Source of the DNA: an uncultured bacterium
GTDB taxonomy: Bacteria; Zixibacteria; MSB-5A5; GN15; FEB-12
Direction: 5' to 3'
Length of the DNA stretch: 64,000 bases
NCBI GenBank assembly: GCA_965372795.1
Contig: CBDVDR010000007.1
Location: 64,001-128,000, forward strand
Below are positions 2,204 to 61,492 of the stretch, one piece after another (positions within the stretch are counted from its first letter, which is position 1; each line of letters opens with the position of its first letter). The position numbers were made by a program, and so were the translations under genes. The notes under the pieces were generated by a model. That model did not search any database and was not told the origin of the DNA. It was given only the letters and a program-made list of their open reading frames with translations.

Positions 2204-4894
2204 TTAGTTTAGGCTGCTATAGGATTCGTATTTTTCAAGTAGTGCTTTAAAGCGAGGGATGTTTTGTAACGGCGCAAAAATCGGATCGGCTCTTAAATAT
2301 TTAACTGAGCTCCAGGATGGAATTGATAAGAGCAACTCAAGTTCTTCAATTGCATTATCATATTCTCCAACGATTGTGTATATAGTAGCCATGACCATGA
2401 CTGCGTCCGGTCCTCACCAGTGGCAGTCGTCAACCGACATCAACTCCTTGGATGTTTTACCCGCTTTTATAGCTTCTTCTTTATTACCCATTAAGGCATA
2501 TGTGAGACCAAGTTCTGCAAAGGCATGAAACTCGGGTTCACCTTGATCAATAATATTAGTTAAGATAATCCTTGAAGAATCATAATAAATTAGAGCCGAA
2601 TCATGATGTCCTGAGAGTTCATATAGATGGCCTATGTTCATCTGTATAATATGAGGTGATCGCTCAGCAATCGTTCCTTTAATATTGCTTAACTTTCGAA
2701 TATTCTCTATTTCAATTTGAGGGTCATATAAATCAGGAATGTATCTCCACAGCCCAAGTGAGGTACCTGAAGTCAGTTCATAGGTTGATATTTCAGCCAA
2801 TCCAACTTTTTCATATAATGTTTTAAATTCTTCAACATCGTATTCGATATTACCATAACGCAGAAGGTTAATTAAAACTTTCAGATACGCAGCATCAGCA
2901 TTATTAGGATCCAGAACCAGAGCACGATTTATATAATTATCCGCTTCTTCGTAATTCCTAGTCATACTTAAACTATTGGCTATGTAAAAGTATCTTCTAT
3001 CAGACAAGGGGTCAATTCGGATAGCTTCTTCAAATTTTTCATTCGCTTCATCCCATTTTCCCTGACGCATTTTAACAATTCCAATAGCCTGTGAGAGTTC
3101 GGCATTGCTGGTAAGTTCGGATTTGGCTCTATTAAATGATGACAATGCTTTTTCGTAATCTCTTTCGATATAATTGGAATAGGTACCCATCGCAATTTGA
3201 GCGGTTGGCAAAGTAGGATCAAGAGCCAGTGCTTTTTCAGCAGCTTTTAAAGCTTCATTTTTATGATATTTTCCATTGACCGATGTAAAATGAAAATTAA
3301 AGGTCGAATGATTCATTGATTTTTGAGCCCAGGCTAAAGCGAAATTTGAGTCAAGGGCTATGGCTGAGTCAAACATATTTATAGATCCCTGAAAATCAGA
3401 CATCCGTAAATTATGACTTGAAATCTCAAGACCCCGAAGATAAAAATTATACGCCGCCATATTTGTAGTCGGAGCATAATCAGGAGCCAGTTTATCTGTT
3501 TCCACTAAAGTCAAGCCTAAGGCGATTACAATCTGTTCAGCTATTTTTGATTGAACATCAAATATTTGCACTAATTGTTGCTCATAAATATCCGACCACA
3601 TCAGATAATTATCACTGGTTTTGGTCAATCTGGGGGTAATGCGAATACGGTCGACTTCACCGGATTTATCCCAACGTATAGTCGCCTCAAGAACATAATC
3701 GGAATTGGTTTCCTGTCCGATTTGTTCAATGCTCTTGTCAGTCTCTTTAAATTTATCAGCAGTTCTTGGTGAAATAACACGCAGTCCCTTTACAGTCGAC
3801 AAACGTGAACTGATTTCATCACGAATACCATCGGAAAAATATTCATCCTCTCCGGCACCAAGATTCTCAAACGGTAACACAATCAATACTGGCGGTTTAT
3901 TTACTATTTGTTCGGGTTGATTATAAAAATACATAAAACCGATTACAATTATAAGAAAAACTGCAACCGCTGACATTTTGAAATATAAATTTTTAAATGA
4001 CGTCTCATGTGTTCTACCAGAAGGATAGGTATGTGATTGCGAATCATACATGAGTCTTTTTAAGTCAGCAATGACACCCTCGGCTGACTGATATCTGAGT
4101 TCTTTGTCTTTTTCGATAAGTTTTAAAATAATATCCTGCAACTTATCTGGAACGTCTGATTTATACCTGTTAATTGGTTCCGGATTACTTTCAATAATAG
4201 CTTTTAATGTCGCGCCTTCATTATCACGCTTAAAAGGAGTTCTTCCGCATAATAATTCATACAGCACGATACCCAATGAAAAAAGGTCCGAACGGTGGTC
4301 GATATCTCTCCCTGAAATTTGTTCGGGTGACATATATGAAACAGTTCCAAGGGTCGAACCGGTTTTGGTTAGTTTATCATCACCCTCTGTGGCAGCTAAA
4401 CCAAAATCCAGCAGTCGTATTCTATTTGTCCTATCAAGGGCAATATTAGCAGGTTTTATGTCTCGATGGGTAATGCCATGTCGATGTGCTTCCCCCAGTC
4501 CCTGACATATTTGCAAGGCGAATTCGATGATAGCATCTGCCGGCTGTGGTTTCTCTTTTATGAAATAACGCAGCGAATGTCCATCAATATTTTCCATAAC
4601 AAAAAAAGGACGACCATTAAACTCACTTACTTCGTGGATAGTAACAATATTTGGATGGTTCAGCTTTGCAACAGCTTGAGCCTCTCTTTGAAATCGTTTT
4701 TTAATATCATCATTATTTAAGAATTGTGTAGGAAGAAATTTCAGGGCAATATTTCGTTTCAGTTTTGTATCTTCAGCCAGATAAACCTCACCCATACCAC
4801 CGGCACCAATTTTTTCAATTATTTTGTATTGATGAACCACGGTTCCTTTAGTCAGAACAACAACTGTTCGGGTATTGTCATCTTTTTGATTCAT
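2204..4894 (-). CDS. Hanks-type Ser/Thr protein kinase - TM - TolB-like - TPR protein; 896 aa if the in-frame TGA at 2414-2416 is read through (candidate selenocysteine)
   Basis: Kinase motifs GAGGMGEVY, ALK, HRDIKPAN, DFG, GTVSYMSPEQ; TM AVAVFLIIVIGFMYF; VLPFEN TolB-like motif; TPRs. ORF 2204..2398 is in frame 5 codons past the TGA and supplies the typical tail of this architecture (LRADPIFAPL..PRFKALL). Confidence 0.88.
2387..2402 (-). promoter_or_regulatory. Candidate bacterial SECIS element of the kinase gene
   Basis: Minus strand AGUCAU-GGUC-AUGGCU: 6-bp stem with one G.U, loop starting GGU, beginning 11 nt after the UGA. Confidence 0.65.
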
Positions 4895-16767: not shown

Positions 16768-16974
16768 AATAAATCTACTTATCAATGTGTAAAATTGTCT
16801 GGCAGTTATTCATTGTGACTTTTTATAGTTCCACCTATAAATGGAATACATAAATATGTGGAACTTCTTTTTCTCTTTAACGTAAACTAATTATCTCGTT
16901 GTAAAATAACGAGTTATGCTTTATGTTTTCGTCTTACAGAAGATAATTAAATGTTAATAATAAAAATTATAGCT

Positions 16975-17008
16975 AAAATGTTGCTTTTTATTGATTGAGG
17001 TGTCTTAG
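16975..17008 (+). promoter_or_regulatory. Putative autoregulatory ECF promoter, near-leaderless transcript
   Basis: TGTTGC-N16-TGTCTTAG ending 2-5 nt before the GTG/ATG start; a second ECF-like promoter GGAAC-N16-CGTAA lies at 16860-16885. Confidence 0.6.
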
Positions 17009-17010
17009 CA

Positions 17011-17589
17011 GTGATGGAAAGAAATAGGAACCTATTTTGGGAGCTCGTTGAGGGCGAACATCTAAAAGCCAGAGGATTCTGTCGAAAGCTAATTGGCAAT
17101 CGACAGGATGGTGATGACCTGTATCAGGACTCTCTGGTGACTGCTCTTTCAAAATTTGATAGTCTACGGGAGATAAATTCTTTTCGACCGTGGTTTTACC
17201 GGATTATTGTAAATCATTTTAAAAACACAATCCGCAGACCCTGGTGGACAAAAATTACTCCTATGACAAAGGAAATTTCGGAAAGTCTTGGCGGTAAAGA
17301 CCCGTTTGATGCTTATTCTGCCCGACAGCGCCTTGAAGTTGCTTTCAAAGTCCTTAAACCGGAAGATCAAACTCTGGTAACTTTGTTCGAACTTGAAGGC
17401 TGGTCAATAGCCGAACTTGCAGAGAGCTACGATAAAAATATCGGAGTGATCAAAATGCGACTTTCCCGTTCCAGAGCGAAGATGCGTAATGCTCTAATGA
17501 AAGCTTCTCCATCGACGAAAAAGGAAGCCGTTAAAATTTTTAAAACTGAGGACCGAATATGCGTTGCTACCAAGCCAGGCAAGAACTGA
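17011..17589 (+). CDS. ECF RNA polymerase sigma factor
   Basis: Region 2 (DDLYQD, FRPWFYRI..N) and region 4 (LEGWSIAELA..IKMRLSRSR). Confidence 0.92.
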   Translation: MMERNRNLFWELVEGEHLKARGFCRKLIGNRQDGDDLYQDSLVTALSKFDSLREINSFRPWFYRIIVNHFKNTIRRPWWTKITPMTKEISESLGGKDPFDAYSARQRLEVAFKVLKPEDQTLVTLFELEGWSIAELAESYDKNIGVIKMRLSRSRAKMRNALMKASPSTKKEAVKIFKTEDRICVATKPGKN

Positions 17590-18965
17590 ACCGACTAGGT
17601 TGGTCAGATACAAAAATTGCCCAAGAAATGCAGTTGGTTCAGCACCTTCAGAACTGTCCTGCCTGCGCCGGACTTCTCAAGGCTGAACAGTCATTAAAGA
17701 GTGACCTCAGAGCGGCATCATTGAATGATAACGAAGAGGTGATACCTATGTCAGTTTTGAAGGCTCGGGTCGAGTATCAGGCTGCAAAAGTACCACAAGT
17801 AACTTTCATGGAGAAACTGCTCATGGCACCACTAAACAATCTGTTCACAAAACGCCCGAAGCTCGGTATTGGTCTGGCTGTTACTATTGTAGCCCTGCTT
17901 ATCTCAGCTTTGGTACCGTTTACTTATGACAACACTATCGGTTACGAAGTAGCCTTTGCCGGTGTTGACCGTACTTTAGCAATGGATCAGGATAAGATTC
18001 AGGATATTTTGTTAAAGCTTGGCGTTGAAGATGCTGCAATTGATGTCTCTGATTGCGAAGCGACATGTAAACTTTTTATCTCGGATCTGAAATCTTCATC
18101 TGATGCTCAAATGATCAAAGCCGCCTTTATAAATATTGATCAAGTTGAACTTCTGCATGATATTAAAGAGATGGTTTCAAAAGAATCCGGAACTTTGATC
18201 CATAAGGTTAAAATTGATCTATTGTCTTCATCAGATAATGTATTTTTCTCAGAAGATGATGCTCATAAAAAAGTTATTGAAATCTTTGGTGACAGTATGA
18301 CTGCTGAACTGATTTTTATCTCTGAAGATTGTAGTGAACTCGATTCTTTGCATTTTAAAATGGGAGATGCCAAAGAGGGCGATTTTGCATGGTTTGGAGC
18401 CGAAATCAATGTTGATTCAGATGATGTAACTGAAAACGTAAATGTTATTGCAAAATATATTAAAATCGGTGATTCAAACTGTAACATTACCGGATTAGAA
18501 GGTATTGATTTTGAAAATCTGACAGATGAAGATATTCAAAAGCTTAAAGATCTGGGCTATGTAGTAGAAATCATTGAAAGTGCTGATGGTACTACCATGG
18601 TTAAGCTGATGATGACTGATGTTACATTTTCTGGTGACCCAACCGAAGATGATGATGAAGCAGCCAAAGAAAATCCGGACCTCCCGGAAGGATATACTCT
18701 TTCACAGAATTATCCAAACCCGTTTAACCCGACTACAACAATTTCATATTCACTTCCAAAGAGTGAGCATGTTACTATAGATATTTATAATATCAATGGT
18801 CAGGTTGTTCGTTCGCTGGTTGATCAGGTTATGTCGGCTGGTACGCACACAATCGAGTGGGATGCGACTTCTGATGGCGGTACCAAAGTTGCGACAGGCA
18901 TGTATCTCTACCGTTTTAATGCCGGTGATATTAGTGAAACCAAGAAGATGACTTTGATGAAATAA
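17559..18965 (+). CDS. Zinc-finger anti-sigma factor with TM helix and C-terminal T9SS type-A/FlgD-Ig sorting domain
   Basis: C3...HLQNCPAC (HxxxCxxC); TM LGIGLAVTIVALLISALV; C-terminal QNYPNPFNPTTTI..IYNINGQVV..WD..GMYLYR..KKMTLMK. Confidence 0.85.
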   Translation: MRCYQARQELNRLGWSDTKIAQEMQLVQHLQNCPACAGLLKAEQSLKSDLRAASLNDNEEVIPMSVLKARVEYQAAKVPQVTFMEKLLMAPLNNLFTKRPKLGIGLAVTIVALLISALVPFTYDNTIGYEVAFAGVDRTLAMDQDKIQDILLKLGVEDAAIDVSDCEATCKLFISDLKSSSDAQMIKAAFINIDQVELLHDIKEMVSKESGTLIHKVKIDLLSSSDNVFFSEDDAHKKVIEIFGDSMTAELIFISEDCSELDSLHFKMGDAKEGDFAWFGAEINVDSDDVTENVNVIAKYIKIGDSNCNITGLEGIDFENLTDEDIQKLKDLGYVVEIIESADGTTMVKLMMTDVTFSGDPTEDDDEAAKENPDLPEGYTLSQNYPNPFNPTTTISYSLPKSEHVTIDIYNINGQVVRSLVDQVMSAGTHTIEWDATSDGGTKVATGMYLYRFNAGDISETKKMTLMK

Positions 18966-19009
18966 CAGGCGTGGCCTGTTTGATATAAAATAAATTTACT
19001 TCATTTCGT

Positions 19010-19036
19010 AAAAAAACCCGCTCGGCGGGTTTTTTT
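19010..19036 (+). terminator. Rho-independent (bidirectional) terminator
   Basis: A7-CCCGC-TCG-GCGGG-T7. Confidence 0.85.
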
Positions 19037-19055
19037 GTAATAATTTTGATTTAAT

Positions 19056-19093: not shown

Positions 19094-19100
19094 CGAATTT

Positions 19101-19172
19101 TAGCGGTAAGGGGAATCGAACCCCTGTTTGATGGATGAGAACCACCGGTCCTAACCACTAGACGATACCGCC
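19101..19172 (-). tRNA. tRNA-Glu (anticodon CUC), CCA not encoded
   Basis: Cloverleaf GGCGGTA/TACCGCT, D-arm GTCT-AGTGGTT-AGGAC, anticodon arm GGTGG-TTCTCAT-CCATC, T-arm AGGGG-TTCGATT-CCCCT. Confidence 0.95.
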
Positions 19173-19208
19173 ATATTCAATGCGTAACGCTAAAAAGCAA
19201 CACAGCCG

Positions 19209-19237: not shown

Positions 19238-19579
19238 GCAGACGCAATCCGTTGAACAACACAGCGTTATGCGATATTGCAAATCTAATCCACTGATAAT
19301 AAACAGCTTACTCAATATCACTTTTTTGCAATAAATTGAAAATAATTCAAAAATAATCACTTCCCAAATTTTGAAAGTCGATATATTAGCATTTGAGTTT
19401 AATTATAACAGATGTCAAATTCAAAAAAAGTGCTTATCGCTGTAACATTACGGGATATAAATAGTTATAAATAATAAGCACAATAGGTTAGCAGACATTA
19501 AATTATTAAATCATATTTTGCTAATCAGTTTGAGGTTTTCTATATTTGAGGTAACACAGCAACTTAGTTGGAGGAAAAA

Positions 19580-22048
19580 ATGGCTCAGCCAAAGAAAATA
19601 AAACAGATAAAAGGTATAAAAGCTAAAGATTTATTATATCTAATTGATTATAAACCATCCGGAATTAAAACCTCAGATGATCTAAAATCACGAAAATCAA
19701 GTATTGGGCAGGAACGTGCGATTGACGCTATAAAAACCGGACTAAATGTGAAAAGTCGCGGTTATAATATATTTGTAAGCGGACCATCGGGCACCGGACG
19801 CACTTCCTCAATAAAAAGACTTCTCGAAGAACTTGAATATGAAAAACCTGAATTAGTTGATTACTGTTATGTAAATAATTTCAAAAACCCCGATCTCCCG
19901 AAACTTCTTGTTTTTAATGCTGGCGAGGGTCGCCGTTTTAAAAAAGATATGTCTTATCTGATCAATTCTTTGCGGAAAATTGTACCAAAAATATTTATGA
20001 GCGAAGATTACAAAGACCGTCAGAGTCGTATCTCCCGTGAATTTGAGGGTCGCCAGAAAGATCTGATTAAAAAATTCGAAGAGAAATTAAGTGAAGCTGG
20101 TTTTGTAATGGTTCAAATCCAATCCGGATTAGGAGTACGAAACGAAATTCAACCACTATATGAAGAGGAACCGGTTCCTTTTGAAAAACTTGAAGTTATG
20201 GTTGAAGAAGGAAATTACTCTCTTTCGCAACTTGACGAACTTCGCCGTAAATGGGATAGTTTAAGGCGCGAGTTTGATGTTACCTCAATAGAATCAAAAA
20301 AATTATCAAATAAACTTGAAGATGCCATCGAAAAATTGAACTACTCAATGGTGGCACCGCTGGTAACCGATAAAATCAATCTTCTGAGCAAAAGATACTC
20401 TTATGAAAAAGTTATCGACTATTTGAACGATGCTCAAGAAGCTCTGCTTGATGATCTTGATCGTTTTCGCGAGGCACAACCCCGGCGGGGCGAGGAAGAA
20501 CCTCCCCCATTTAGAAAACGCGAACCGTTTGAAGAGTTTAGTATAAATCTATTTTTGGATAACTCTGAAACTGATAAAGTACCAATAGTAATCGAAAAAT
20601 CGCCAACATTTAGTAAACTTTTCGGATCATTAGAACGGGTTGTCGACCGTTTTGGTTACTGGCGGACAGATTTTACGCGAATTTTTTCCGGTTCAATGGT
20701 TAAAGCCGCCGGTGGTTTTTTAATTATCAATGCTATGGATATTTTGATTGAGCCGGGAGTCTGGACTCAATTAAAAAGAACATTACTTAACGGTGAATTT
20801 GAAATGGCGGGTTCTGATCCATTTGGAATGTTTGCCGGATCAAGTATCAAACCGGAACCAATTCCGCTTAATATTAAGGTTATCTTAAAAGGTGACGCCA
20901 AAACCTTTGGTTTACTTTATCAGTTAGACGAAGATTTTAAAAAGATTTTTAAAATTAAAGCAGAATTTGATTCGGTTATGAAGATAACCAATAAAAATAT
21001 TAACAATTATTTTGAATTCATTCGAACTGTTATCGATAACGATAACCTGATGGCATTTGATTTGTCCGGAATGCAGGCGATTGTTGAATATGGAACAAAG
21101 CTAAGCGGCAAAAAAGGCAAAATTACAACTCAGTTCACCTATATCTCAGATATGGTTCGTGAAGCTAATTATTGTGCCTCAAAACGGAAAACAAAAGTTG
21201 TCAGCCGCGAAGATGTTCATTGTGCCATTAAACTGAAGCGCCGTCGTTCAAATATGGTCGAGGAGAAAATTCAAGAGCTTTATGATGAAAATGTACTAAT
21301 GGTTTCTACATCAGGCAAAGTTGTTGGCCAGATAAACGGATTAGCTGTTTATAGCCAGGGTGATTTTGCTTTTGGACGACCGACACGAATTACTGCCGCA
21401 ACATCATTAGGCAGAGCAGGCGTGATCAATATTGAACGTGAAGCAGATTTATCAGGACCAACACATAATAAAGGGATTCTGATTCTTACCGGATATCTCA
21501 GACATCTGTTTGCCCAGGATAAGCCAATGATAATGTCAGCCTCAATATCATTCGAACAATCATACAGCGGCGTCGATGGTGATTCGGCTTCATCAACAGA
21601 AATGTATGCGATCTTATCGTCCTTGTGTAATGTTCCATTAAAACAAGGCATTGCTGTAACAGGATCAGTCAATCAAAAAGGTGAAATTCAACCAATTGGC
21701 GGCGCAAATGAAAAAATCGAAGGATTTTATGACGTTTGCAAAGCAAAACGGTTGACCGGAACTCAGGGCGTGATGATCCCTCATCAAAATGTAAATGATT
21801 TGTTATTACGGCCTGATGTGATTGATGCTATCAAAGCTGGAAGTTTTCATATCTATCCTGTGAAAACGATTAATGAAGGAATAGAAATACTCACCGACAT
21901 TCCCGCCGGGAAAAAACTTGCCAATGGTAAATTTACCAAGGGAAGTTTGATGGAAATGGTTGATGATAAACTTCGTGAGATGGCTTTAGCCTTTCAAAAT
22001 TTCGGACGAGATACTAAAACAAAAAACAATAACAACAACGATAAATAA
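19580..22048 (+). CDS. Lon-family protease, LonC/LonB-like (AAA_32 plus Lon_C)
   Basis: GGAGG RBS before ATG 19580; GQERA, GPSGTGRT, GQINGL, DGDSAS Ser and GGANEK Lys dyad. Confidence 0.9.
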   Translation: MAQPKKIKQIKGIKAKDLLYLIDYKPSGIKTSDDLKSRKSSIGQERAIDAIKTGLNVKSRGYNIFVSGPSGTGRTSSIKRLLEELEYEKPELVDYCYVNNFKNPDLPKLLVFNAGEGRRFKKDMSYLINSLRKIVPKIFMSEDYKDRQSRISREFEGRQKDLIKKFEEKLSEAGFVMVQIQSGLGVRNEIQPLYEEEPVPFEKLEVMVEEGNYSLSQLDELRRKWDSLRREFDVTSIESKKLSNKLEDAIEKLNYSMVAPLVTDKINLLSKRYSYEKVIDYLNDAQEALLDDLDRFREAQPRRGEEEPPPFRKREPFEEFSINLFLDNSETDKVPIVIEKSPTFSKLFGSLERVVDRFGYWRTDFTRIFSGSMVKAAGGFLIINAMDILIEPGVWTQLKRTLLNGEFEMAGSDPFGMFAGSSIKPEPIPLNIKVILKGDAKTFGLLYQLDEDFKKIFKIKAEFDSVMKITNKNINNYFEFIRTVIDNDNLMAFDLSGMQAIVEYGTKLSGKKGKITTQFTYISDMVREANYCASKRKTKVVSREDVHCAIKLKRRRSNMVEEKIQELYDENVLMVSTSGKVVGQINGLAVYSQGDFAFGRPTRITAATSLGRAGVINIEREADLSGPTHNKGILILTGYLRHLFAQDKPMIMSASISFEQSYSGVDGDSASSTEMYAILSSLCNVPLKQGIAVTGSVNQKGEIQPIGGANEKIEGFYDVCKAKRLTGTQGVMIPHQNVNDLLLRPDVIDAIKAGSFHIYPVKTINEGIEILTDIPAGKKLANGKFTKGSLMEMVDDKLREMALAFQNFGRDTKTKNNNNNDK

Positions 22049-22629: not shown

Positions 22630-25600
22630 TTAGAAATCAGCCCCAAGCGAGAAATAGTAGGTCGGCTTAGCCGATATTTGAGCAAAATCAGTTGCCCAGG
22701 CTAAGTCATATCTCAGTAATAAAAAGCCAAGATTGGCTCTCATTCCAAAGCCAAAACCTGTTTTAATGTCCTGAAGCCGCTTTTCTCCACCTTCGGAAGT
22801 CCCACCTTTAAATCGGTTTTTAAACCAGGCAGCACCAATATCTGAAAAAATTGCGCCCTGCACCCGACTGATAATCAAAGGCAGAGGGAATCGCATGGCA
22901 AAATAATCAATCATTGGAAAGCGAAATTCCATGTTTATTAGGCCGTACCGGGTTCCGTTTATCCCATAATATGGCAAACCCCGCATCGGCGTAATTATAT
23001 CAGCAAAATAAAGATTTTCAACTTCATACACCGAGGCATCAAGGGTTCGATTACCAATCCAGTTAGTTGTACCGCCAAGGAAATATAATTTAGGAGTTTT
23101 TCCTGAAGAGGCTCCACCGGAAACTCGGAACGCAAACGAATATGTTTTATTAAAATGCCAATATTTTCTATAATCCACTTCTAATGAATTGTAGTCAATG
23201 TCATTTGAATCAAAAAGATTTATTCCTTTTGAGAGAGAGATTTTTGCTCGTCTTCCATTTACCGGACCAGTAATCCCCCAGATTATATTATCAGTAACGT
23301 AAGAAAAGTTACCTGTGAAAACTTTCGAGTTCCGGTCAGACCTATTATCAACAATATCGTAATATTGGCGATCTATGAAGGAATGTGTGGCACTCATCTC
23401 AAGACGGCTGAAAATTGAATAAGGTCGGCTGGCAAAGAATTGTAAGCCGTAAAACCTGTCAGAAAATAGAAAATCGTTGGCGTCAATATAGAAATTTTTC
23501 GAATGAAAAATGCCAAACCCTAATCTGGTTCTCTTTTTATTGTTAAAATAATAAACCTGGATATTCGATTGATCAATCGTATTGACTAAATCTGTGGCGA
23601 GATAAAATTGATGATTACCAAGGTAATCTGAGAAAACAAAATATGATTGACCTCTTAATCCAAAGAATGTGTCATAAGAAAAACCACCTCCGACATAGTC
23701 TGGTGTAAATTTAACCTTATATTCGTTAATCTCATATTCACCATTAGTAAGAAGTCCGGGAATTGAATCAAATGACGTTGGTTCTTCAAGAGGTATATCT
23801 AAGCCCGATTCATCTTCCTCCCGGGCAATATCTCTCATTAAAGAATCAAGAGGACTTTTTTTATCATCGCTGACAAAAACAAACTCATCGTCATAAATTC
23901 CGGTTGATCGGACCGTTTTTTCATCTTCAGGATCAGAATTTTCTTTTTCAGATGAAGTTGTCGTATCGGATACTTGAGCCAGCTCAACCGCTGTTGAGTC
24001 AGATTCAGAGTCTGCTACGGTTTCTTTAGCAGGTTTTTGGATTGTTGTATCTTTGGCTTTATGTTTAGCGAGGATATTATTGGGATCTTCTTTTTTCAAA
24101 AGGTCATATTCCCCGGTAACAAAGTCAGATAATGTCAGAACGCCATTTTCACCAACGGGTACTAATTCTTCAAGCATAAAGATATCAAAAGCGCCCTGAT
24201 GAAATGATGAGAACGCAATATTATCACCATCAGGCGACCAGCTAATCGAACTTACTCCGGTAAGAATATCCGTCAGACTATAATATTGAACGGTATCCAA
24301 AAATCCGATATAGATGTTATCAATTCCATTTCTATTAGATATAAAAGCAACTTTTTTTCCATCCGGCGATACTCTTGGATATTTATTGTCACCGGCACCA
24401 ACATCTAACGGCTTGACTTCTTTATCAGCAAAATCTACTCGAAAGAGATTGTATTTCCCATAATTAAAATCTCCCGGCAGAAGAGCGCCTTTATCGACAT
24501 AAATATTTTCTTTATCATAAATTTGATTTGTCTGAGGATGTGATCGATCAGATGAGAAGATGAGTCCATCGGAACCTTTCAGCCAAGTGGGAGTCACATC
24601 ATCAAATCTATCTTCAGTTATCTGGATAACATCATCATTATCTACATTATATACAAACAGATTTCTTGTATTTCCTTTAAGTGCTGAAAAGGCAATTTTG
24701 ATTCCATCAGGCGACCATACCGGTGAAATAATGTTGTAATAATCGAATCTTTTTTTAAGATAAGTTTTCTTTTTTTTAACATTGTAAAAAAACAGAGCTT
24801 CTTTACCTTCTGATTTTGCAACAAACACCAGACTTCGGCCATCAGGTGAGAAAGAAATTCCTGAGACATAGGAATGAAGCGATTCTAAATCTCCCGTTCG
24901 CTGAGATTTTACGAGCCTCTCGACATGGGTTCCGTTTTCAGAAGAGATCAAAACAATCTCAGTATAATCTGATTTGTCAGTAAAAATTGCCAGATGATCA
25001 CCATCAGGAGTGAATTCCGGTTTTTCATTAAAATAAGATCCGTCTTCACGGGCATGAGTAAGTTGTTTGGCTATTTCATCAGTTTCTTTTCGCTTGGCAA
25101 TTTCAGGCCAGTACCGGCGTTTCATCTCTTTTGAAAAATCTTTCCAGAAATCTTTCATCGTTATTCCAAGAGCATATTTCATCGCCTTATTCATGGTTAG
25201 ATGAATTTTACCCTTCATTAATATTTTGCCGAGTTTTTCCTCTCCATATTTTTCGGCAATATATTTAACCATTGCCTGCCCCTGCTTATAGGCGAGGAAA
25301 CCTCCCAGATATTCCGGTGGCGCCAGATATCCGTTGATCGTGGCATCGCGTACGAACATATCAGAATTATAATCCCAGCCATGCCGTGAGGAATATTCGG
25401 CGTAACCTTCGGCAAACCATAAAGGCAGGGCAAACAGCCTTTGTCTTGATAAAAGAGATGAAAAAACATTTCCATACACCATATCATAAATAACAGCATG
25501 GGTTAATTCATGATGAAGGACATGCCTTAAAACTTCATAAGAACCAGTAAACGGAATAACTATTCGGTTTTTGAAGGCTTCGGTAAAACCTCCGGTACCT

Positions 25601-25920
25601 TCACCGATAAGAGAAGAAATAATATTTGTTTGTTGGAAGTCATTATGAGAATTGTAAAGAAAGACCGGTATTCTTTTTTGAATTTTGTAGTTTAATTCAC
25701 GGGTGACCTCTACATAAGCCGACTCAAGAACAGTTGCCGTAAACTTTGCTGTCGGGTAGGCACTTTCGTAGAAATGAATATCAAAGTGACGGGTTTGGAT
25801 ATAATCCCAATCGAAATCTTTATATCTAACCTTGTTTTTCCCAAAATATGTTTCCTGAGCGTAAACATCAACTATTAGCAAAGTGAGGATTATAAAAATA
25901 AAAAGAAATGTTTTCCTCAT
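22630..25920 (-). CDS. Omp85/BamA-TamA family outer membrane protein with N-terminal HExxH peptidase domain and PD40/TolB beta-propeller
   Basis: Signal peptide; HELTH...WFAEGYAEY; repeated WSPDG; acidic linker; barrel with MRG, EFRFP, FSDIG, C-terminal SLGADF. Confidence 0.85.
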   Translation of the reverse strand: MRKTFLFIFIILTLLIVDVYAQETYFGKNKVRYKDFDWDYIQTRHFDIHFYESAYPTAKFTATVLESAYVEVTRELNYKIQKRIPVFLYNSHNDFQQTNIISSLIGEGTGGFTEAFKNRIVIPFTGSYEVLRHVLHHELTHAVIYDMVYGNVFSSLLSRQRLFALPLWFAEGYAEYSSRHGWDYNSDMFVRDATINGYLAPPEYLGGFLAYKQGQAMVKYIAEKYGEEKLGKILMKGKIHLTMNKAMKYALGITMKDFWKDFSKEMKRRYWPEIAKRKETDEIAKQLTHAREDGSYFNEKPEFTPDGDHLAIFTDKSDYTEIVLISSENGTHVERLVKSQRTGDLESLHSYVSGISFSPDGRSLVFVAKSEGKEALFFYNVKKKKTYLKKRFDYYNIISPVWSPDGIKIAFSALKGNTRNLFVYNVDNDDVIQITEDRFDDVTPTWLKGSDGLIFSSDRSHPQTNQIYDKENIYVDKGALLPGDFNYGKYNLFRVDFADKEVKPLDVGAGDNKYPRVSPDGKKVAFISNRNGIDNIYIGFLDTVQYYSLTDILTGVSSISWSPDGDNIAFSSFHQGAFDIFMLEELVPVGENGVLTLSDFVTGEYDLLKKEDPNNILAKHKAKDTTIQKPAKETVADSESDSTAVELAQVSDTTTSSEKENSDPEDEKTVRSTGIYDDEFVFVSDDKKSPLDSLMRDIAREEDESGLDIPLEEPTSFDSIPGLLTNGEYEINEYKVKFTPDYVGGGFSYDTFFGLRGQSYFVFSDYLGNHQFYLATDLVNTIDQSNIQVYYFNNKKRTRLGFGIFHSKNFYIDANDFLFSDRFYGLQFFASRPYSIFSRLEMSATHSFIDRQYYDIVDNRSDRNSKVFTGNFSYVTDNIIWGITGPVNGRRAKISLSKGINLFDSNDIDYNSLEVDYRKYWHFNKTYSFAFRVSGGASSGKTPKLYFLGGTTNWIGNRTLDASVYEVENLYFADIITPMRGLPYYGINGTRYGLINMEFRFPMIDYFAMRFPLPLIISRVQGAIFSDIGAAWFKNRFKGGTSEGGEKRLQDIKTGFGFGMRANLGFLLLRYDLAWATDFAQISAKPTYYFSLGADF

Positions 25921-31628: not shown

Positions 31629-32594
31629 TTACATACTACCTGTTAAAGTTATTCGGTGGCTGTCACCAAGATCGGCTCCGGGTGAAAATGAATAAGAAAC
31701 TTGCATATTTCTAACATCGAATCCAAACCCTAATGAAAGTCCGGCAAGATTATCTTCTGAACCTTCAGCCACATAATTCGATCCGAAACTATTCCATCCC
31801 AGCCTGAAATAAATCGGTTCCAATTCATAATATTCAGCTCCAATTGCAAAGACAATATCATTATCAACCGGGATAATCAGATCAGATGAAAGCTGAACCG
31901 GCAGACCTCGCGGCTTAATGGCAATTCCCGTTCTAACCGTAAGAGGCATCCGATATTTTTCATCTCCAAAGCCAGATAATTGTTTGCCAAGGTTTTGAAT
32001 CATGATACCGGCAGTAAATTTTTCACGGTCACCAATATATTTAGCACCCAGATCAATAGCAAATCCGGCAGCTGAATATTTTTGAATTTTTTCATAGATA
32101 GCTTTTATTGTAATACCGCCAGCATAGTTATAATTAAACCGGTAAGCTAACGTTGCGGCTCCCATTAAGTCGCCACCTGAGAAATCACCGGTGACTTCTC
32201 CGAAACGATTAGCCTCGGTAAATTTTCCGTAATTTAAATAAGAAAGATATCCGCCAAACGTCATTTTCTCATTAATAGTTCTTATGTACCCTGCAAACCC
32301 TGATTGTATATCAGTAAAATAATTATGATAACCAATAATATAACGGCTTTCCTGTTCAAAAGTAACAATCCCGGCGGGATTGTAGTACAGAGAAGCTTCA
32401 TCATCAGCTAATCCCGTAAACGCCCCACCCATAGCTACCGCACGGGCACTAATATTAATTTTTAAAAATGGAAAAGCACTGGTGCCAGCTTTTTCGTGGA
32501 TATCGTCACCATCTTGAGCAGAAATATTTGATATGCCAATAAATGAAATCAGAAATAAGCATATAAAAATCGAGAACATCAAATTTCGTATCAT
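31629..32594 (-). CDS. PorV/PorQ family outer membrane beta-barrel protein
   Basis: FLKI..SARAVAMGGA, YYNPAG, DLG, IQNLG motifs; signal peptide from ATG 32594. Confidence 0.8.
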   Translation of the reverse strand: MIRNLMFSIFICLFLISFIGISNISAQDGDDIHEKAGTSAFPFLKINISARAVAMGGAFTGLADDEASLYYNPAGIVTFEQESRYIIGYHNYFTDIQSGFAGYIRTINEKMTFGGYLSYLNYGKFTEANRFGEVTGDFSGGDLMGAATLAYRFNYNYAGGITIKAIYEKIQKYSAAGFAIDLGAKYIGDREKFTAGIMIQNLGKQLSGFGDEKYRMPLTVRTGIAIKPRGLPVQLSSDLIIPVDNDIVFAIGAEYYELEPIYFRLGWNSFGSNYVAEGSEDNLAGLSLGFGFDVRNMQVSYSFSPGADLGDSHRITLTGSM

Positions 32595-32680
32595 ACAGTT
32601 TCCTTTAAAATTATGATGACCAATATCACCATCAAATATCAATTTAATCTAAAAAAATAAATATTAGTTACAAATAAAAA

Positions 32681-45605: not shown

Positions 45606-47738
45606 ATGGCAATTGAAACTTATTATTATGACAACAAAATTGTAAAGAACTTTGCTTTAGCAACAATGCTGTGGGGTATTGTTGGAATGCTGGTGGGGCT
45701 GCTTGCGGCAATTCAATTATTTGCACCTAGTTTTAATTTTGGCATAGCCTATACAACTTTTAGTCACATTCGACCATTACATACTAATGCTGTTATATTT
45801 GCTTTTGTAGGAAACGCCATTTTTATGTCGATTTACTACTCCTTACAAAGACTTTGTAAAGCTCGTATGTATAACGATTTCCTGAGTAAATTTAATTTCT
45901 GGGGTTGGCAGGCAATAATTGTTTCAGCAGTAATTACAATTCCAATGGGTTTTGTGACCGGTAAAGAATATGCTGAACTTGAATGGCCGATTGATATTGC
46001 GATTGCAGTTGTCTGGCTGGCCTTTGGCTATAATATGTTTGGAACCATTGCAAAACGGCGCGAGAAACATATGTATGTTGCGATCTGGTTTTATATCGCC
46101 ACTTTTGCAACTGTGACAATTCTCCATGTTGTAAATTCAATTGAAATTCCTGTTTCATTTTTAAAAAGTTATCCGGTTTATGCCGGTGTACAGGATGCTT
46201 TAGTTCAATGGTGGTATGGGCATAATGCCGTAGCATTCTTTTTGACCACCCCTTATCTCGGCATGATGTATTATTTTCTTCCCAAAGCAGCTAACCGTCC
46301 TATTTTTTCATATCGATTATCGATCATTCATTTTTGGGCATTAATTTTTATCTATATCTGGGCAGGTCCCCATCATCTGCTATATACTTCGCTTCCCGAT
46401 TGGGCTCAATCACTTGGCACAACTTTTTCGATCATGCTCCTGGCGCCATCATGGGGCGGAATGTTAAACGGTCTTTTAACCTTGAGGGGTGCCTGGGATA
46501 AGTTAAGAGAAAGTGTCGTACTCAAATTCCTTGTTGTCGCAATCACTGCTTATGGAATGGCAACCTTTGAAGGTCCGATGCTTGCAATAAAAGGAGTTAA
46601 TGCTCTTTCCCATTACACCGATTGGACGATTGCTCATGTTCATGTTGGAGCCTTGGGCTGGAACGGGTTCATGACTTTTGGGGTGCTTTATTGGCTGATA
46701 CCAAAAATATTCAATACAAAACTGTACTCTGAAAAACTTGCAAATGCTCATTTTTGGATAGCCTTTCTGGGTATTTTAGTTTATGCCTTGCCGTTGTATT
46801 TTGCCGGTATCACTCAGGGACTTATGTGGAAACAATTTTCCCCCGAAGGATTTTTGGTTTATCCTAACTTCCTTGAAACAGTAATCCAAATTATTCCGAT
46901 GTATGCCATTCGAGCTATCGGAGGAGCACTATTCATAACCGGTTCAATAATGATGACCTATAACCTGTTAAAGACTATGAGAATCGGTAATTTAATTGCT
47001 GATGAAAAAGCGGAAGCTCCAGCTTTGGTTAAAGAGATAACTTCAAAAGAAAAATCAGAAGGCTGGCATAGAGTCCTCGAAGGCAAACCGCTCAAATTTA
47101 CGTTTCTTTCAGTAGTAGCAGTTTTGATCGGTGGAGCGATTGAAATTATCCCTACCTATATAATTAAGTCAAATATCCCGACAATCAGCTCGGTTAAACC
47201 ATACACCCCGCTTGAACTTGAAGGTCGTGATATATATGTAGCCGAAGGGTGCAACACCTGCCATTCACAAATGATTCGTCCTTTCCGCTCAGAGACAGAG
47301 CGTTATGGTGAGTATTCTAAAGCCGGTGAATTTGTATATGACCATCCTTTCTTGTGGGGCTCAAAACGTACCGGACCGGATCTTCATCGTATTGGTGGAA
47401 AATATCCCGATGCCTGGCATTATAACCATATGATAGATCCCGAGTCTATGTCACCCGGATCGATCATGCCGCCGTTCCCATGGCTGGCAACTGATCTGGT
47501 TGACCTTGAGATGATTCCTCCAAAAATTAGGGCGATGCAGACATTGGGAGTTCCGTATCCTAATAATTATGACGAACAAGCAGTCAGAGATTATTCTATT
47601 CAAGCAATAAAAGTAGCTGAGAATCTCAATGAGAGTGGGATAACCGTTGATGTAAAATCAAAGATGGTTGCTTTGATTGCATATCTACAAAGAATGGGTA
47701 CTGATATCAAAGCTAAACCAACTCCTTCGGGAAATTAA
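45606..47738 (+). CDS. ccoNO: cbb3-type cytochrome c oxidase, fused subunits I/II
   Basis: RPLHT, WWYGHN, GPHH, HVH; CcoO part CNTCHSQMIR, WGSKRTGPDL. Confidence 0.97.
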   Translation: MAIETYYYDNKIVKNFALATMLWGIVGMLVGLLAAIQLFAPSFNFGIAYTTFSHIRPLHTNAVIFAFVGNAIFMSIYYSLQRLCKARMYNDFLSKFNFWGWQAIIVSAVITIPMGFVTGKEYAELEWPIDIAIAVVWLAFGYNMFGTIAKRREKHMYVAIWFYIATFATVTILHVVNSIEIPVSFLKSYPVYAGVQDALVQWWYGHNAVAFFLTTPYLGMMYYFLPKAANRPIFSYRLSIIHFWALIFIYIWAGPHHLLYTSLPDWAQSLGTTFSIMLLAPSWGGMLNGLLTLRGAWDKLRESVVLKFLVVAITAYGMATFEGPMLAIKGVNALSHYTDWTIAHVHVGALGWNGFMTFGVLYWLIPKIFNTKLYSEKLANAHFWIAFLGILVYALPLYFAGITQGLMWKQFSPEGFLVYPNFLETVIQIIPMYAIRAIGGALFITGSIMMTYNLLKTMRIGNLIADEKAEAPALVKEITSKEKSEGWHRVLEGKPLKFTFLSVVAVLIGGAIEIIPTYIIKSNIPTISSVKPYTPLELEGRDIYVAEGCNTCHSQMIRPFRSETERYGEYSKAGEFVYDHPFLWGSKRTGPDLHRIGGKYPDAWHYNHMIDPESMSPGSIMPPFPWLATDLVDLEMIPPKIRAMQTLGVPYPNNYDEQAVRDYSIQAIKVAENLNESGITVDVKSKMVALIAYLQRMGTDIKAKPTPSGN

Positions 47739-47749
47739 GGAGGTATCTG

Positions 47750-47935
47750 ATGATAAAAGATGTACTTCAGTCTATAGAAGGTATTGAGATTTATCCAATT
47801 ATCTCATTATTACTTTTCTTTATAACATTTGTTTTAATGCTTATTAAAGTATTCAACCTTGATAAAAAATACCTTCAGAAGATGGGAAAACTTCCGCTCG
47901 ACAATAATATTGAACAGGATAAGAGGAATATATAG
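47750..47935 (+). CDS. ccoQ: cbb3 oxidase subunit CcoQ
   Basis: AGGAGG RBS; single TM; LPL tail; position in the operon. Confidence 0.85.
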   Translation: MIKDVLQSIEGIEIYPIISLLLFFITFVLMLIKVFNLDKKYLQKMGKLPLDNNIEQDKRNI

Positions 47936-47936
47936 A

Positions 47937-48608
47937 ATGTCCGATCTAAACGATAAACTGCTCGATCATGATTACGATGGAATTAAAGAACTTGATAATG
48001 ATCTCCCTCGCTGGTGGGTGTGGCTATTTATTCTAACAATAATTTGGTCTTTTGCTTATATGATTTATTATCATGTTGCTGATATTGGATATCTTTCAAC
48101 TGATGAATATAGACTTGAAATGAATCCAAACTATATACGGATTCAGGAATCAGATGCAAAGTTAATGGGTGTACTCAACGAGTATCGTTCACCATATTTT
48201 AATTCCAAAGGTGAAATGACTCCGCGTATGAGATTGCTTGGACAAGTTCAGGAAGCTTACATTGAAGAAAGCCGCGAATCTGATACAATCAGTTATTTTG
48301 CATTAACCGAACCAGAGCAAATCGCATCCGGAGTAGAAACCTACAAGAAAAACTGTGTTTCCTGTCATGGTAATTTTGGAGAAGGCGGCATTGGACCAAA
48401 CCTGACCGATAATTACTGGATGCATAAATCAAGTATGACTGATGTTGTTAAAAGTATTAAATACGGTTATCCCGCCAAAGGGATGATTTCCTGGCGTGGT
48501 TTCTTGAAAGAAGATCAGATTTTGGAGGTTGCAAGTTTTGTCTTAACCCTTAAAGGCACCAATCCCCCTAATGCCAAATCACCACAAGGGGATCTGGTCG
48601 AAGACTGA
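47937..48608 (+). CDS. ccoP: cbb3 oxidase subunit III (mono-heme)
   Basis: DHDYDGIKELDN.LP.WW; CVSCH; GPNLTD; GM..W. Confidence 0.92.
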   Translation: MSDLNDKLLDHDYDGIKELDNDLPRWWVWLFILTIIWSFAYMIYYHVADIGYLSTDEYRLEMNPNYIRIQESDAKLMGVLNEYRSPYFNSKGEMTPRMRLLGQVQEAYIEESRESDTISYFALTEPEQIASGVETYKKNCVSCHGNFGEGGIGPNLTDNYWMHKSSMTDVVKSIKYGYPAKGMISWRGFLKEDQILEVASFVLTLKGTNPPNAKSPQGDLVED

Positions 48609-48615
48609 TTGAATT

Positions 48616-50028
48616 ATGAACTCCAACTCGAAAAATAGAAACGACTTTAGAAATACTTTAGCAACAGCCGATAAACAGGGAAAAAGAATTTGGGTTTACC
48701 CAACCCGTCCCAAAGGTAAATTTCATTCTGCCCGACAATGGGTAAGTTATTTATTGCTGGCTCTTTTATTCGGTGGCCCGTTTATAAAAATCAGCGGTAA
48801 ACCGATATTGATGCTTAATATTATTGAGCGTCAATTTGTAATTTTCGGAGAAACGTTTTATCCTCAGGATTTCTTTCTGTTCGCACTGTTTTCAATTTCT
48901 ATAATTGTAATTGTATTTTTATTTACAGCTATCTATGGCAGGCTTTTTTGCGGATGGATCTGCCCGCAGACGATTTTTATGGAAATGGTATTCCGCAAAA
49001 TTGAATACTTTATAGAAGGCAGCGCCCAGCGTCAGCGCGATTTAAACAATGCCCCCTGGACAGCTTCGAAGTTTTTCAAAAAAACTTCCAAACATGTCAT
49101 TTTTTATGGTATATCATTTTTGATCGGGAATACCTTCCTCGCTTACATCATCGGAATTGATAGCCTGATTGAAATCATCACTGACCCGCCTTCACAACAT
49201 GTTACCGGTTTAAGCGTCATGATAATTTTCAGTCTTATTTTCTACTGGGTTTTTGCCTGGTTCAGAGAGCAGGTCTGTACCCTTGTTTGTCCGTATGGAA
49301 GACTACAATCGGTTCTATTGGATTCTAATACAATCGTGGTTGCTTATGATAATAAACGGGGTGAACCGCGGGAACCGATGAATAGAAATCAGTCCCGGGA
49401 GAATCAGGGTGATTGCATTGATTGTGATGCTTGTGTAAAAGTGTGCCCGACCGGAATAGATATCAGAAACGGCACCCAACTCGAATGTATCAACTGTACG
49501 GCATGCATTGATGCCTGCGATTTTGTCATGGAAAAAGTAAATTTGCCAACCGGCCTTATCAGATACTCATCGCTGAATAATATAGAGTACGGCAGAAAAT
49601 TTCAATATACTCCTCGAATTATCGGATATTCGCTGGTGTTATTCTTCATTGTTGTTTTGACCACGACTTTGTTATTCGCCCGTTCAGACGTTGATATATC
49701 TATTCTCAGAACTCCCGGTTCATTGTATCAGGAATCACAAAATGGAATTATTCAAAATATTTATAATCTTCGAGTAATTAATAAAACTTCAGACAAAATG
49801 CCAATCGTGTTGAAGTTAAAAAATATTGAAGGACAAATAAAAGTCGTTAGCGGAGATATTGTCGTAGAAGAAAACGGCACCTCCGAAACCGTTATTGTCA
49901 TAGAGCTGAATAAAAAACATCTCTTTACGGCAATCCGTTTAATTGAGATACAAATTCTATCAAACGGTGAATTGATTGATGAAATACGAACTAATTTCTT
50001 AGGACCTAAACCTGTGACAGGAAGATAA
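48616..50028 (+). CDS. ccoG: Cytochrome oxidase accessory ferredoxin membrane protein
   Basis: FCGWICPQT, CPYG, two CxxCxxCxxxC motifs. Confidence 0.95.
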   Translation: MNSNSKNRNDFRNTLATADKQGKRIWVYPTRPKGKFHSARQWVSYLLLALLFGGPFIKISGKPILMLNIIERQFVIFGETFYPQDFFLFALFSISIIVIVFLFTAIYGRLFCGWICPQTIFMEMVFRKIEYFIEGSAQRQRDLNNAPWTASKFFKKTSKHVIFYGISFLIGNTFLAYIIGIDSLIEIITDPPSQHVTGLSVMIIFSLIFYWVFAWFREQVCTLVCPYGRLQSVLLDSNTIVVAYDNKRGEPREPMNRNQSRENQGDCIDCDACVKVCPTGIDIRNGTQLECINCTACIDACDFVMEKVNLPTGLIRYSSLNNIEYGRKFQYTPRIIGYSLVLFFIVVLTTTLLFARSDVDISILRTPGSLYQESQNGIIQNIYNLRVINKTSDKMPIVLKLKNIEGQIKVVSGDIVVEENGTSETVIVIELNKKHLFTAIRLIEIQILSNGELIDEIRTNFLGPKPVTGR

Positions 50029-50029
50029 A

Positions 50030-50482
50030 ATGATTTTCAAAATTTCATGGGGAACCGGGATTACACTCTTATATAGTGGTTTTGTTATTTTTATTCTTGC
50101 AATGGTATTCTTTGCCGCAACCAGAACTCATGAATTGGTTGAAAAAGATTATTACACTCAGGAAATACAATACCAAAAAAGGATCGACAAACAAACTAAC
50201 TCGGCGATGCTGGAAACTAATTTGAACATTAATTATATCAATGAATCAAAAAAGCTTGTGTTCACATTCCCCCAAATGGAAACTAATAATTTTGGTGGTA
50301 AAATTAAATTTTACCGTCCATCTGATGAATCATTGGATTTTTATTTACTGGTTGAGGTTGATTCATTATTCTCTCAAGCCGTTGACTGCTCTGATTTGAA
50401 AACCGGCTTATGGTGGGTAAAAGTTGATTGGAGCAACGAAACCTCGAAATATTATTTTGAAGATAAATTTTTTATAAATTGA
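50030..50482 (+). CDS. ccoH: FixH family protein
   Basis: SWG.GI, LV..DYY, YRPS, GLW motifs. Confidence 0.85.
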   Translation: MIFKISWGTGITLLYSGFVIFILAMVFFAATRTHELVEKDYYTQEIQYQKRIDKQTNSAMLETNLNINYINESKKLVFTFPQMETNNFGGKIKFYRPSDESLDFYLLVEVDSLFSQAVDCSDLKTGLWWVKVDWSNETSKYYFEDKFFIN

Positions 50483-50513
50483 TTTATAAAAAAAGAAAAG
50501 GCAAACTAAGTTC

Positions 50514-56905: not shown

Positions 56906-56923
56906 TTAGTTAACGCTAACTAA
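56906..56923. promoter_or_regulatory. Putative TetR operator 2
   Basis: TTAGTTA-ACGC-TAACTAA just before the RBS of the decaheme cytochrome. Confidence 0.65.
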
Positions 56924-56940
56924 TGCACCAAGGAGGTATC

Positions 56941-57876: not shown

Positions 57877-57885
57877 GAGAATTAA

Positions 57886-60066: not shown

Positions 60067-60094
60067 AAATCCTCTTTTTCTTAACTCCAATCTT

Positions 60095-60130
60095 CAAGGT
60101 TGTGTTATTTTCCAAAATAACGCAACCTTG
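60095..60130 (+). terminator. Long hairpin downstream of the porin (terminator or mRNA stabiliser)
   Basis: CAAGGTTGTGTTATTTT-CC-AAAATAACGCAACCTTG; no U-tract. Confidence 0.55.
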
Positions 60131-61484: not shown

Positions 61485-61492
61485 TTATAGAG

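Follow-up and report, generated by a model that had tools for sequence, protein, structure and literature searches.

A conserved ECF sigma/anti-sigma gene pair of Candidatus Zixiibacteriota with a type IX secretion-type sorting domain on its membrane-anchored anti-sigma factor

We analysed a 64,000-nucleotide (nt) stretch of DNA from an uncultured bacterium of the Zixibacteria (assembly GCA_965372795.1, contig CBDVDR010000007.1, positions 64,001 to 128,000), hereafter the window, and found in it a compact plus-strand unit of two genes, in which the gene for an extracytoplasmic function (ECF) sigma factor is followed by the gene for a 468-amino-acid (aa) partner protein. The pair is a self-contained and probably self-activating unit, in which a single-pass anti-sigma factor accompanies its ECF sigma factor. 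The anti-sigma factor ends in a sorting domain, here called the tag, of the kind that marks proteins as cargo for a type IX secretion system (T9SS). We give about an even chance to the proposal that the stability of the anti-sigma factor is coupled to the secretion state of the T9SS, taking the two possible directions of such a signal together. An earlier note, made from the letters of the window alone, had listed the elements of this architecture, and all of them are present where it placed them.

The first gene encodes a protein with the composition of group 4 (ECF) sigma factors, having regions 2 and 4 only and a small size (191-192 aa). It matches Sigma70_r2 (PF04542, 45.8 bits) and Sigma70_r4_2 (PF08281, 32.3 bits), both above the cut-offs, and the ECF model TIGR02937 with 65.3 bits against a cut-off of 42.9. 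The partner gene begins at 17559, inside the sigma gene that ends at 17589, giving an overlap of 31 nt, and a GAGGA sequence lies 8 nt before the partner ATG; that the two genes overlap had been pointed out in the earlier note.

The reading of partner residues 1-95 as a sigma-binding domain like that of zinc-binding anti-sigma (ZAS) factors is supported by a conserved HxxxCxxC motif, by an overlap with the ECF gene that recurs in each relative examined and by a predicted complex with the sigma factor. The motif had been noticed before, and comparison with relatives confirms it: H29-x3-C33-x2-C36, together with C3, is conserved at 90% or more among 53 relatives, and HxxxCxxC falls within the first 80 residues in 143 of the 167 proteins of the family. 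AlphaFold models residues 1-54 confidently as helices, with a predicted local distance difference test (pLDDT) above 90 up to residue 40. Modelling of the complex, a check that the earlier note had proposed, gave the sigma factor and partner residues 1-98 a score of 0.64, compared with 0.12 for the best control; a mark of 0.64 is reached by 116 of 157 solved complexes and by 2 of 215 mismatched pairs. The predicted contacts agree to at least 68% between runs, with partner pLDDT of at least 77, and are positioned on sigma residues 5-46 and 103-165, i.e. on regions 2 and 4. This outcome may mirror likeness to known structures, because solved sigma/anti-sigma complexes exist.

At the other end of the protein, the assignment of the C-terminal domain to the T9SS type-A/FlgD-Ig class holds against curated cut-offs. 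Specifically, the domain matches PF18962 (Por_Secre_tail) with 37.5 bits (cut-off 27), PF13860 (FlgD_ig) with 43.2 bits (cut-off 27) and TIGR04183 with 43.7 bits (cut-off 23), the last match covering residues 385-464 of 468 and thus the extreme C-terminus. AlphaFold predicts a seven-stranded Ig-like beta-sandwich with pLDDT above 90. Foldseek searches with this model returned the Ig domain of FlgD (3osv, E 1.4e-4), the PorZ entry 5m11 and the PorU entry 6za2, in addition to chain 8gl8_D of an extended-translocon entry.

The tag is, at the level of sequence, of cargo grade and cannot be told apart from the tags on cargo proteins of the same genome. In this genome, which measures 3.35 Mb and is 98.65% complete, 45 matches to TIGR04183 exceed the cut-off, and by a profile of our own 38 other open reading frames (ORFs) end in such a tag. 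Against these 38 cargo tags, the anti-sigma tag has a median identity of 47.5% and a maximum of 61%. The anti-sigma tags carry the same residue at 43 of the 52 columns conserved in cargo, including LP..L.QNYPNPFNP, SG.Y.Y and the terminal KKM.L.K. Furthermore, a profile built from anti-sigma tags only scores the cargo tags at 90-131 bits, as against 19 bits for the FlgD-like ORF of the genome (C4:46237-46974). An identity as the hook-capping protein FlgD was considered and rejected, given those scores and the fact that the Ig-like part alone matches.

The sole hydrophobic helix of the partner lies between these two ends, in agreement with the single transmembrane helix described earlier. It has a Kyte-Doolittle hydropathy of 2.03 over residues 100-118, is modelled by AlphaFold as a helix at 103-118, and carries KRPK on its N-terminal side. 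The helix is a signal anchor and not a cleavable signal peptide, because a 98-residue predicted sigma-binding domain precedes it; cleavage of the helix had been raised in the earlier note as one way in which its idea could fail. The cargo proteins are built differently. The best 10-residue hydropathy near the N-terminus is 2.43-3.72 in all 38 of them, against 1.21 within the first 70 residues of the anti-sigma factor, which has a cytoplasmic domain as its first 98 residues where type-A cargo has a signal peptide. Because all 38 cargo proteins have a signal-peptide-like stretch and the anti-sigma factor has none, it is, by these predictions, the single membrane-tethered carrier of a cargo-grade tag in the genome. 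The missing signal peptide is the very point of interest of a tagged anti-sigma factor; we regard the link to the T9SS as plausible, although unproven.

The pair is a conserved family, not a one-off fusion. Family searches used residues 1-380, which kept the tag from determining what was found. A protein search found 25 relatives at 29-52% identity, of which 23 have both PF18962 and PF13860, one has PF13860 alone, and one, a partial sequence, has neither. The same query matched 143 of the 285 genomes of the phylum, 109 of the 198 good-quality genomes and 74 of the 130 genera. All of the 30 best loci, a set that counts the window's own, have an orthologous sigma gene directly upstream, in most of them again overlapping by 31 nt; the tag is terminal in 29, and a contig end cuts the remaining one. 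Named genome records hold 40 loci, mostly titled Candidatus Zixiibacteriota, of which we examined 39, leaving out L085 with its 28-residue match; in this set, which partly overlaps the 30 best loci, the sigma gene is present in 39 of 39 and the tag in 34, while two loci are cut by a contig end and three are short forms. Of the 167 family proteins, 108 have the tag at their end, 42 stop within 40 residues past the domain that follows the membrane helix (the juxtamembrane domain), and 17 are partial or intermediate.

The genome holds two paralogous systems. One is a gene pair at C28:4938-6081 (minus strand), coding for a 176-aa sigma factor and a 203-aa anti-sigma factor, which carries no tag and stops immediately behind the juxtamembrane domain. 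The second is one ORF of 460 aa at C21:25263-26645 (plus strand), in which a paralogous ECF sigma factor, an HxxxCxxC domain, a helix and a juxtamembrane domain are fused, again with no tag. The sigma part of this fusion scores 180 bits against the window's sigma factor, and a promoter-like site of the same type as that of the unit in the window lies 13 nt upstream of it (20.1 bits).

Relatives share the motif TGT(A/T)ACC(TTT)-N-GTGTCT(A/T)A upstream of the sigma gene, found by pattern in 21 of 30 loci, and the copy in the window has a weaker -35 part. In the window 8 nt separate the end of the site from the sigma ATG, and in most relatives 2-7 nt, so few that the sigma mRNA is probably leaderless or nearly so. 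A listing of public sequencing runs had no entry for 16800-19050 and no RNA data set. The conservation of the site directly upstream of the sigma gene suggests that the unit activates itself. A classical promoter, GGAAC-N16-CGT, 151 nt upstream of the sigma gene, was rejected as a candidate; it occurs in the window only and is not conserved in the other 29 loci.

The genome encodes parts of the T9SS, the presence of which the earlier note had proposed to check through sprA, porU and porV. SprA was found with 454 bits, or 574 bits with neighbouring same-frame pieces (cut-off 200), and PorU with 688 bits (cut-off 420). PorV-like ORFs account for 14 matched stretches in the genome, one ORF, at C19:54718-57453, lying directly downstream of porU and the others scattered, all of them below the PorV equivalog cut-off. 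The gene for SprA is at C19:8387-14191 (minus strand), on the same contig as porU; at C19:54718-60776 (minus strand), the next ORF after porU is 931 aa long, and a long insert separates its PorV-like pieces. The window itself has a PorV/PorQ-like gene, placed at 31629-32594 by the earlier note. Its membership of the family stands (Table 1), but it is 13 kb away from the unit, is one of several such genes and is unlinked to the pair in relatives. A site-2 protease gene (Peptidase_M50, 228 bits) is also present. PorU occurs in 281 of 285 genomes of the phylum and in 198 of 198 good-quality ones; being nearly universal, it makes a correlation between the family and the presence of a T9SS uninformative.

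From the architecture and conservation of the pair, the cargo-like tag, the genes for SprA, PorU, PorV-family proteins and a site-2 protease, and the predicted sigma interface, we infer the following mechanism. The cytoplasmic HxxxCxxC domain would hold the sigma factor, and the signal-anchor helix would put the rest of the protein into the periplasm, namely a ferredoxin-like domain, an acidic and partly disordered tether, and the tag. The tag would dock the far end of the tether on the outer-membrane T9SS machinery, that is, on a PorV-family shuttle and the SprA translocon. Once the tag is engaged, the stability of the anti-sigma factor would follow the secretion state, and regulated proteolysis, with the site-2 protease acting last, would release the sigma factor for a putative regulon.

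Two directions of the signal can be envisaged. In the one that we favour, though tentatively, a free translocon would capture and pull the tag and strain the juxtamembrane domain until it is cut; the periplasmic piece would then leave as ordinary cargo, and the sigma factor would report available secretion capacity, as FlgM export does for flagella. With the same reserve, the periplasmic half may be described as tethered T9SS cargo, on which a pull by SprA and PorV would lead to a cut, to site-2 proteolysis and to sigma release, as a FlgM-like checkpoint. The reverse direction, nearly as likely and by itself rather unlikely, would sense a jam: accumulating cargo would displace the tag from the shuttle, and the tether would be exposed to proteases.

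The mechanism calls for a tether that reaches the outer membrane. The acidic periplasmic region of about 250 aa noted earlier is found as residues 123-375, 253 aa with 58 D/E and 20 K/R. Within its linker, segments that are disordered in the AlphaFold model (248-298 and 355-374, pLDDT below 50) flank a small folded module at 297-352 (pLDDT about 80), and about 70 residues of the tether are disordered in all. The linker measures 92-243 aa across the family, and the distance from the transmembrane helix to the tag 214-392 aa (median 262) with a net charge of -51 to -13. The periplasm is 20-30 nm wide, and a tether of about 70 disordered residues and two small domains could, to judge from the model, be long enough to span it as far as the outer membrane.

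A tether of this length would also fit an envelope-spanning surface sensor of the Dma type. The tag would then undergo export and processing by PorU and the far end would be fixed at the surface, so that one polypeptide would join the outside of the cell to the cytoplasmic sigma factor and sense cues in the outer membrane or outside the cell. PorU is present, and Dma1 has a matching layout, in which an ECF partner and one helix go with a long disordered region and an end directed to the outer membrane (PMC10927553). However, a T9SS tag gives no barrel, the C-terminal fold here being a beta-sandwich, and after release from the translocon there would presumably be nothing to carry the chain across the outer membrane. 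We consider a surface sensor improbable.

Another reading takes the periplasmic part as mainly a secreted product, cut constitutively and exported to an extracellular role of its own, with sigma release as a by-product. The cargo-grade tag would suit this, as would the folded module at 297-352, which has no assigned role. Against it, what lies between the juxtamembrane domain and the tag is less conserved than any other part of the protein and varies in length as stated above, and a sigma gene accompanies the protein in 30 of 30 loci, a strict pairing that speaks for regulation as the function under selection. This reading is very unlikely.

The juxtamembrane domain, by comparison with the linker, is the best conserved part of the protein apart from the tag. 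Its consensus reads TIGYEVAFAGVD...CEATC, and C166 and C170, which form a CxxxC pair, are nearly invariant among relatives. Modelled alone, with pLDDT 82.6 and a predicted template modelling score (pTM) of 0.70, it takes up a ferredoxin-like beta-alpha-beta-beta-alpha-beta fold, followed by two helices. Foldseek found no match to this model at E ≤ 0.001, the best being the PII-like SbtB at 8.5e-3. VIA-align returned the ferredoxin-like folds of RRM, SecDF P4, ACT and MzrA type at Z 7-9.9, which is the usual level for models with no clear match and from which no function can be read. A census with the profile of the domain points to a small family, with 281 clusters at E ≤ 0.001 (195 at 1e-10 and 83 at 1e-30) among 1.84 billion representatives, and in members with a complete N-terminus the domain lies at about residues 110-250.

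Several findings weigh against a coupling to secretion. A chain anchored in the inner membrane has to be cut before it can be exported in full, and there is no known cleavage site. The models for GldK, GldM and GldL have no match in the genome (GldN was not searched for), a result that does not establish absence, the GldM and GldL models having matched none of the named control genomes, so that their sensitivity is unproven. The T9SS looks reduced by these searches compared with that of Bacteroidota; the energising GldKLM motor known from there may be absent here and the pulling force is unproven. Furthermore, among the 39 loci there is no linkage of the pair to T9SS genes and there are no conserved neighbours, the largest flanking cluster being found in 3 of the 39.

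Promoter searches point to no regulon either. The strict pattern has a sole match in the whole genome, the unit's own promoter. A weight matrix built from 20 orthologous sites, the unit's own site being left out, gave 42 matches of at least 13 bits over both strands of the 3.35-Mb genome (6.7 Mb); three shuffled 1-Mb strands gave 9, 10 and 13 matches with top scores of up to 22.5, and the scan is uninformative. Phylum-wide, the pattern has 10 matches in 8 of the 285 genomes, of which 7 are the orthologues' own promoters, and the remaining 3 equal the 3 matches of a reversed control pattern, which leaves no regulon signal.

At the cytoplasmic end, sequence models speak weakly for the identity of the anti-sigma domain. 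Of the combination of zf-HC2, a transmembrane helix and the tag next to an ECF gene, which the earlier note had proposed to look for, the helix, the tag and the ECF neighbour are present; the partner protein has no Pfam zf-HC2 match at E ≤ 1. The RsrA model TIGR03988 matches the domain with 18.1 bits (E 0.0021) against a cut-off of 62.5, and a sequence search of the PDB with the N-terminal profile returned RsiW as its one match, at E 0.18. Among look-alikes in the Atlas, zf-HC2 clusters score 0.87, which serves as a lead only, and one cluster at 0.94 has Candidatus Zixiibacteriota as the commonest phylum of its members.

The tag also appears dispensable: the same core occurs with no tag in 42 of the 167 family proteins and in the two paralogous systems of the same genome. 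A FastTree tree of the N-terminal part, computed from 135 complete proteins after exclusion of 32 partial or ambiguous rows, has 6 changes between tagged and short forms, compared with about 33 when the labels are shuffled, and well-supported branches force at least 4 changes of tag state. By this tree, the tag is clustered in the family, yet it has been gained or lost several times.

These findings bear on another explanation, an ordinary envelope-stress or redox ECF system in which the CxxxC juxtamembrane domain senses and the tag is a passive periplasmic Ig-like module for binding or spacing. The juxtamembrane domain is what defines the family, and the short forms, the repeated gain or loss of the tag, and the failure to find T9SS linkage or a regulon all fit such a system; moreover, FlgD has the same fold as the tag and is no secretion signal. 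However, the tag has kept its cargo-conserved positions, including the terminal KKMTLLK-type strand, and is far closer to cargo than to FlgD. It has also been kept in 108 of the 167 family proteins across 29-59% identity. Where a cell has SprA, PorU and PorV-family proteins, one would expect a cargo-grade tag displayed in its periplasm to be recognised. We hold the passive tag, the main rival of the coupling, to be possible but doubtful.

The secretion-coupled signalling proposed by the earlier note thus stands in part. It had named three ways to be wrong, namely homologues with no C-terminal domain, a cleaved helix and a genome with no T9SS core; the analysis found homologues that keep the tag, a signal anchor, and SprA, PorU and PorV-family genes. 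On the other side are the missing regulon and T9SS linkage, the GldK, GldL and GldM models with no match, and the tag-less relatives.

The coordinates of the unit and of related features are given in Table 1. The sigma gene likely starts at the ATG at 17014. A terminator-like hairpin closes the unit, and a second one, at 16895-16913, lies between the unit and an upstream prolyl-oligopeptidase gene.

Table 1. Coordinates in the window of the two-gene unit, of the parts of the anti-sigma factor and of other features mentioned in the text
Feature	Position	Strand	Remarks
Candidate ECF-type promoter	16979..17005	+	-35-like TGTTGC 16979-16984, 15-nt spacer, -10-like GTGTCT 17000-17005
ECF sigma factor gene	17014..17589	+	191 aa from ATG; ORF list begins at GTG 17011
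Partner (anti-sigma) gene	17559..18965	+	468 aa
Predicted cytoplasmic anti-sigma domain, residues 1-95	17559..17843	+	C3, H29, C33, C36 (HxxxCxxC)
Single transmembrane signal-anchor helix, residues 100-122, N-terminus inside	17856..17924	+	Hydropathy and AlphaFold
Juxtamembrane periplasmic domain, residues 123-245	17925..18293	+	Predicted ferredoxin-like fold, CxxxC
Acidic linker, residues 246-375	18294..18683	+	33 D/E, 8 K/R
T9SS type-A C-terminal sorting domain, residues 376-468 and stop codon	18684..18965	+	Profile matches and fold
Terminator-like hairpin and T run	19008..19038	+	Closes the two-gene unit
tRNA-Glu gene	19100..19173	-	3' of the unit, opposite strand
PorV/PorQ family ORF	31629..32642	-	NF033709 166.4 bits (cut-off 90); PorQ model 186.8 bits (cut-off 220)

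Other genes of the window were recorded in passing. A short way downstream of the unit, 19568-22048 (plus strand) encodes a Lon-like protease, which has LonB-type AAA, LonC helical and Lon_C domains; in the loci of relatives it is no conserved neighbour of the pair. A 1096-aa protein at 22630-25920 (minus strand) combines Peptidase_MA_2 with PD40/TolB-like beta-propeller repeats and has a weak TamL-like C-terminal match. The cbb3-type oxidase cluster at 45606-51275 (plus strand) has its CcoN (COX1) and CcoO (FixO) domains in one 710-aa ORF, followed by FixP-, FixG-, FixH- and DsbD_2-like genes. At 56923-63998 (plus strand), several multihaem cytochrome c genes in a row (Paired_CXXCH_1, cytochrome c7/c3 types), together with a cytochrome b561-like and a NapC/NirT-like gene, stand behind a TetR-family regulator, and an 826-aa Ser/Thr protein kinase with TPR repeats at its C-terminus is encoded at 2414-4894 (minus strand).

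As far as we searched, the family, whose relatives are mostly titled Candidatus Zixiibacteriota, is undescribed in the literature. Searches of papers, supplements aside, found none on anti-sigma factors with a T9SS domain, the nearest being a paper on PorA. They also found none on Zixibacteria and the T9SS, and none on type IX secretion together with Ignavibacteria and SprA. A preprint on the re-classification of ECF sigma factors has no T9SS, Por_Secre or FlgD, and the words 'type IX secretion' occur in its reference list only.

To our knowledge, the matching of gene expression to type IX secretion is known in outline only and for Porphyromonas alone, through PorXY-SigP with PorA upstream. 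If the coupling is true, no wire from the secretion machine to RNA polymerase could be shorter than this fusion of a tag to an anti-sigma factor. The fusion would give a handle on tag recognition, on the engagement of tethered cargo and on the T9SS outside Bacteroidota, here in a genome in which GldK, GldL and GldM were not found, and a unit of just two genes with their own promoter is small enough that it could be used to report on secretion status. Even if the tag plays no part, the family gives a new juxtamembrane sensor domain that is restricted to the phylum and has a conserved CxxxC pair.

Among known systems, RsrA, RsiW and ChrR are class I ZAS anti-sigma factors paired with ECF sigma factors. 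The anti-sigma factor described here is like them in its overlap with the ECF gene, its N-terminal helical HxxxCxxC domain, its one helix and its predicted contacts on sigma regions 2 and 4. It is unlike them in giving no zf-HC2 match at the threshold used, and its periplasmic ferredoxin-like domain, acidic tether and T9SS tag have no counterpart there. FlgM, the anti-sigma factor of sigma-28, is soluble and exported whole by the flagellar system, and the RseA/DegS/RseP cascade is a proteolytic one, triggered by C-terminal signals of envelope proteins, in which RseA has no secretion tag. What FlgM/sigma-28 and RseA/DegS/RseP share with the unit is the proposed logic, by which either the state of export or assembly or a proteolytic cascade would bring about the removal of an anti-sigma factor; as far as tested, neither FlgM nor RseA is related in sequence to the anti-sigma factor here.

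Three further systems come close in particular parts. PorA of Porphyromonas gingivalis bears a tag and feeds the PorXY-SigP pathway, which makes PorA-PorY/PorX-SigP a case of a T9SS C-terminal-domain protein in signalling that ends at an ECF sigma factor; there, a separate surface protein acts with a two-component system, whereas here the tag is fused to the anti-sigma factor (PMC7712824). RsgI of Clostridium thermocellum is cut in its juxtamembrane domain and then by site-2 proteolysis (PMC10328401). The outer module of RsgI binds polysaccharide and not a secretion machine, and the conserved Asn-Pro autocleavage motif does not appear in the 29-sequence consensus of the juxtamembrane domain here (PMC10328401). 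No RsgI entry stands among the listed VIA-align matches of the juxtamembrane model, which are generic ferredoxin-like ones. Nevertheless, SigI/RsgI and the present system have the same order of an anti-sigma domain, a helix, a conserved juxtamembrane domain and an outer module for sensing or binding (PMC10328401). The Dma anti-sigma factors span both membranes by way of a disordered region, and an eight-stranded barrel in the outer membrane forms their end (PMC10927553). No sequence relationship was found between Dma and the anti-sigma factor here, which belongs to another phylum, has a soluble sorting domain in place of the barrel and has the conserved juxtamembrane domain in addition. Both are ECF-linked single-pass anti-sigma factors with a long disordered region across the periplasm toward the outer membrane, and both have a sigma-fused form, Dma3 there and the ORF at C21:25263-26645 here (PMC10927553).

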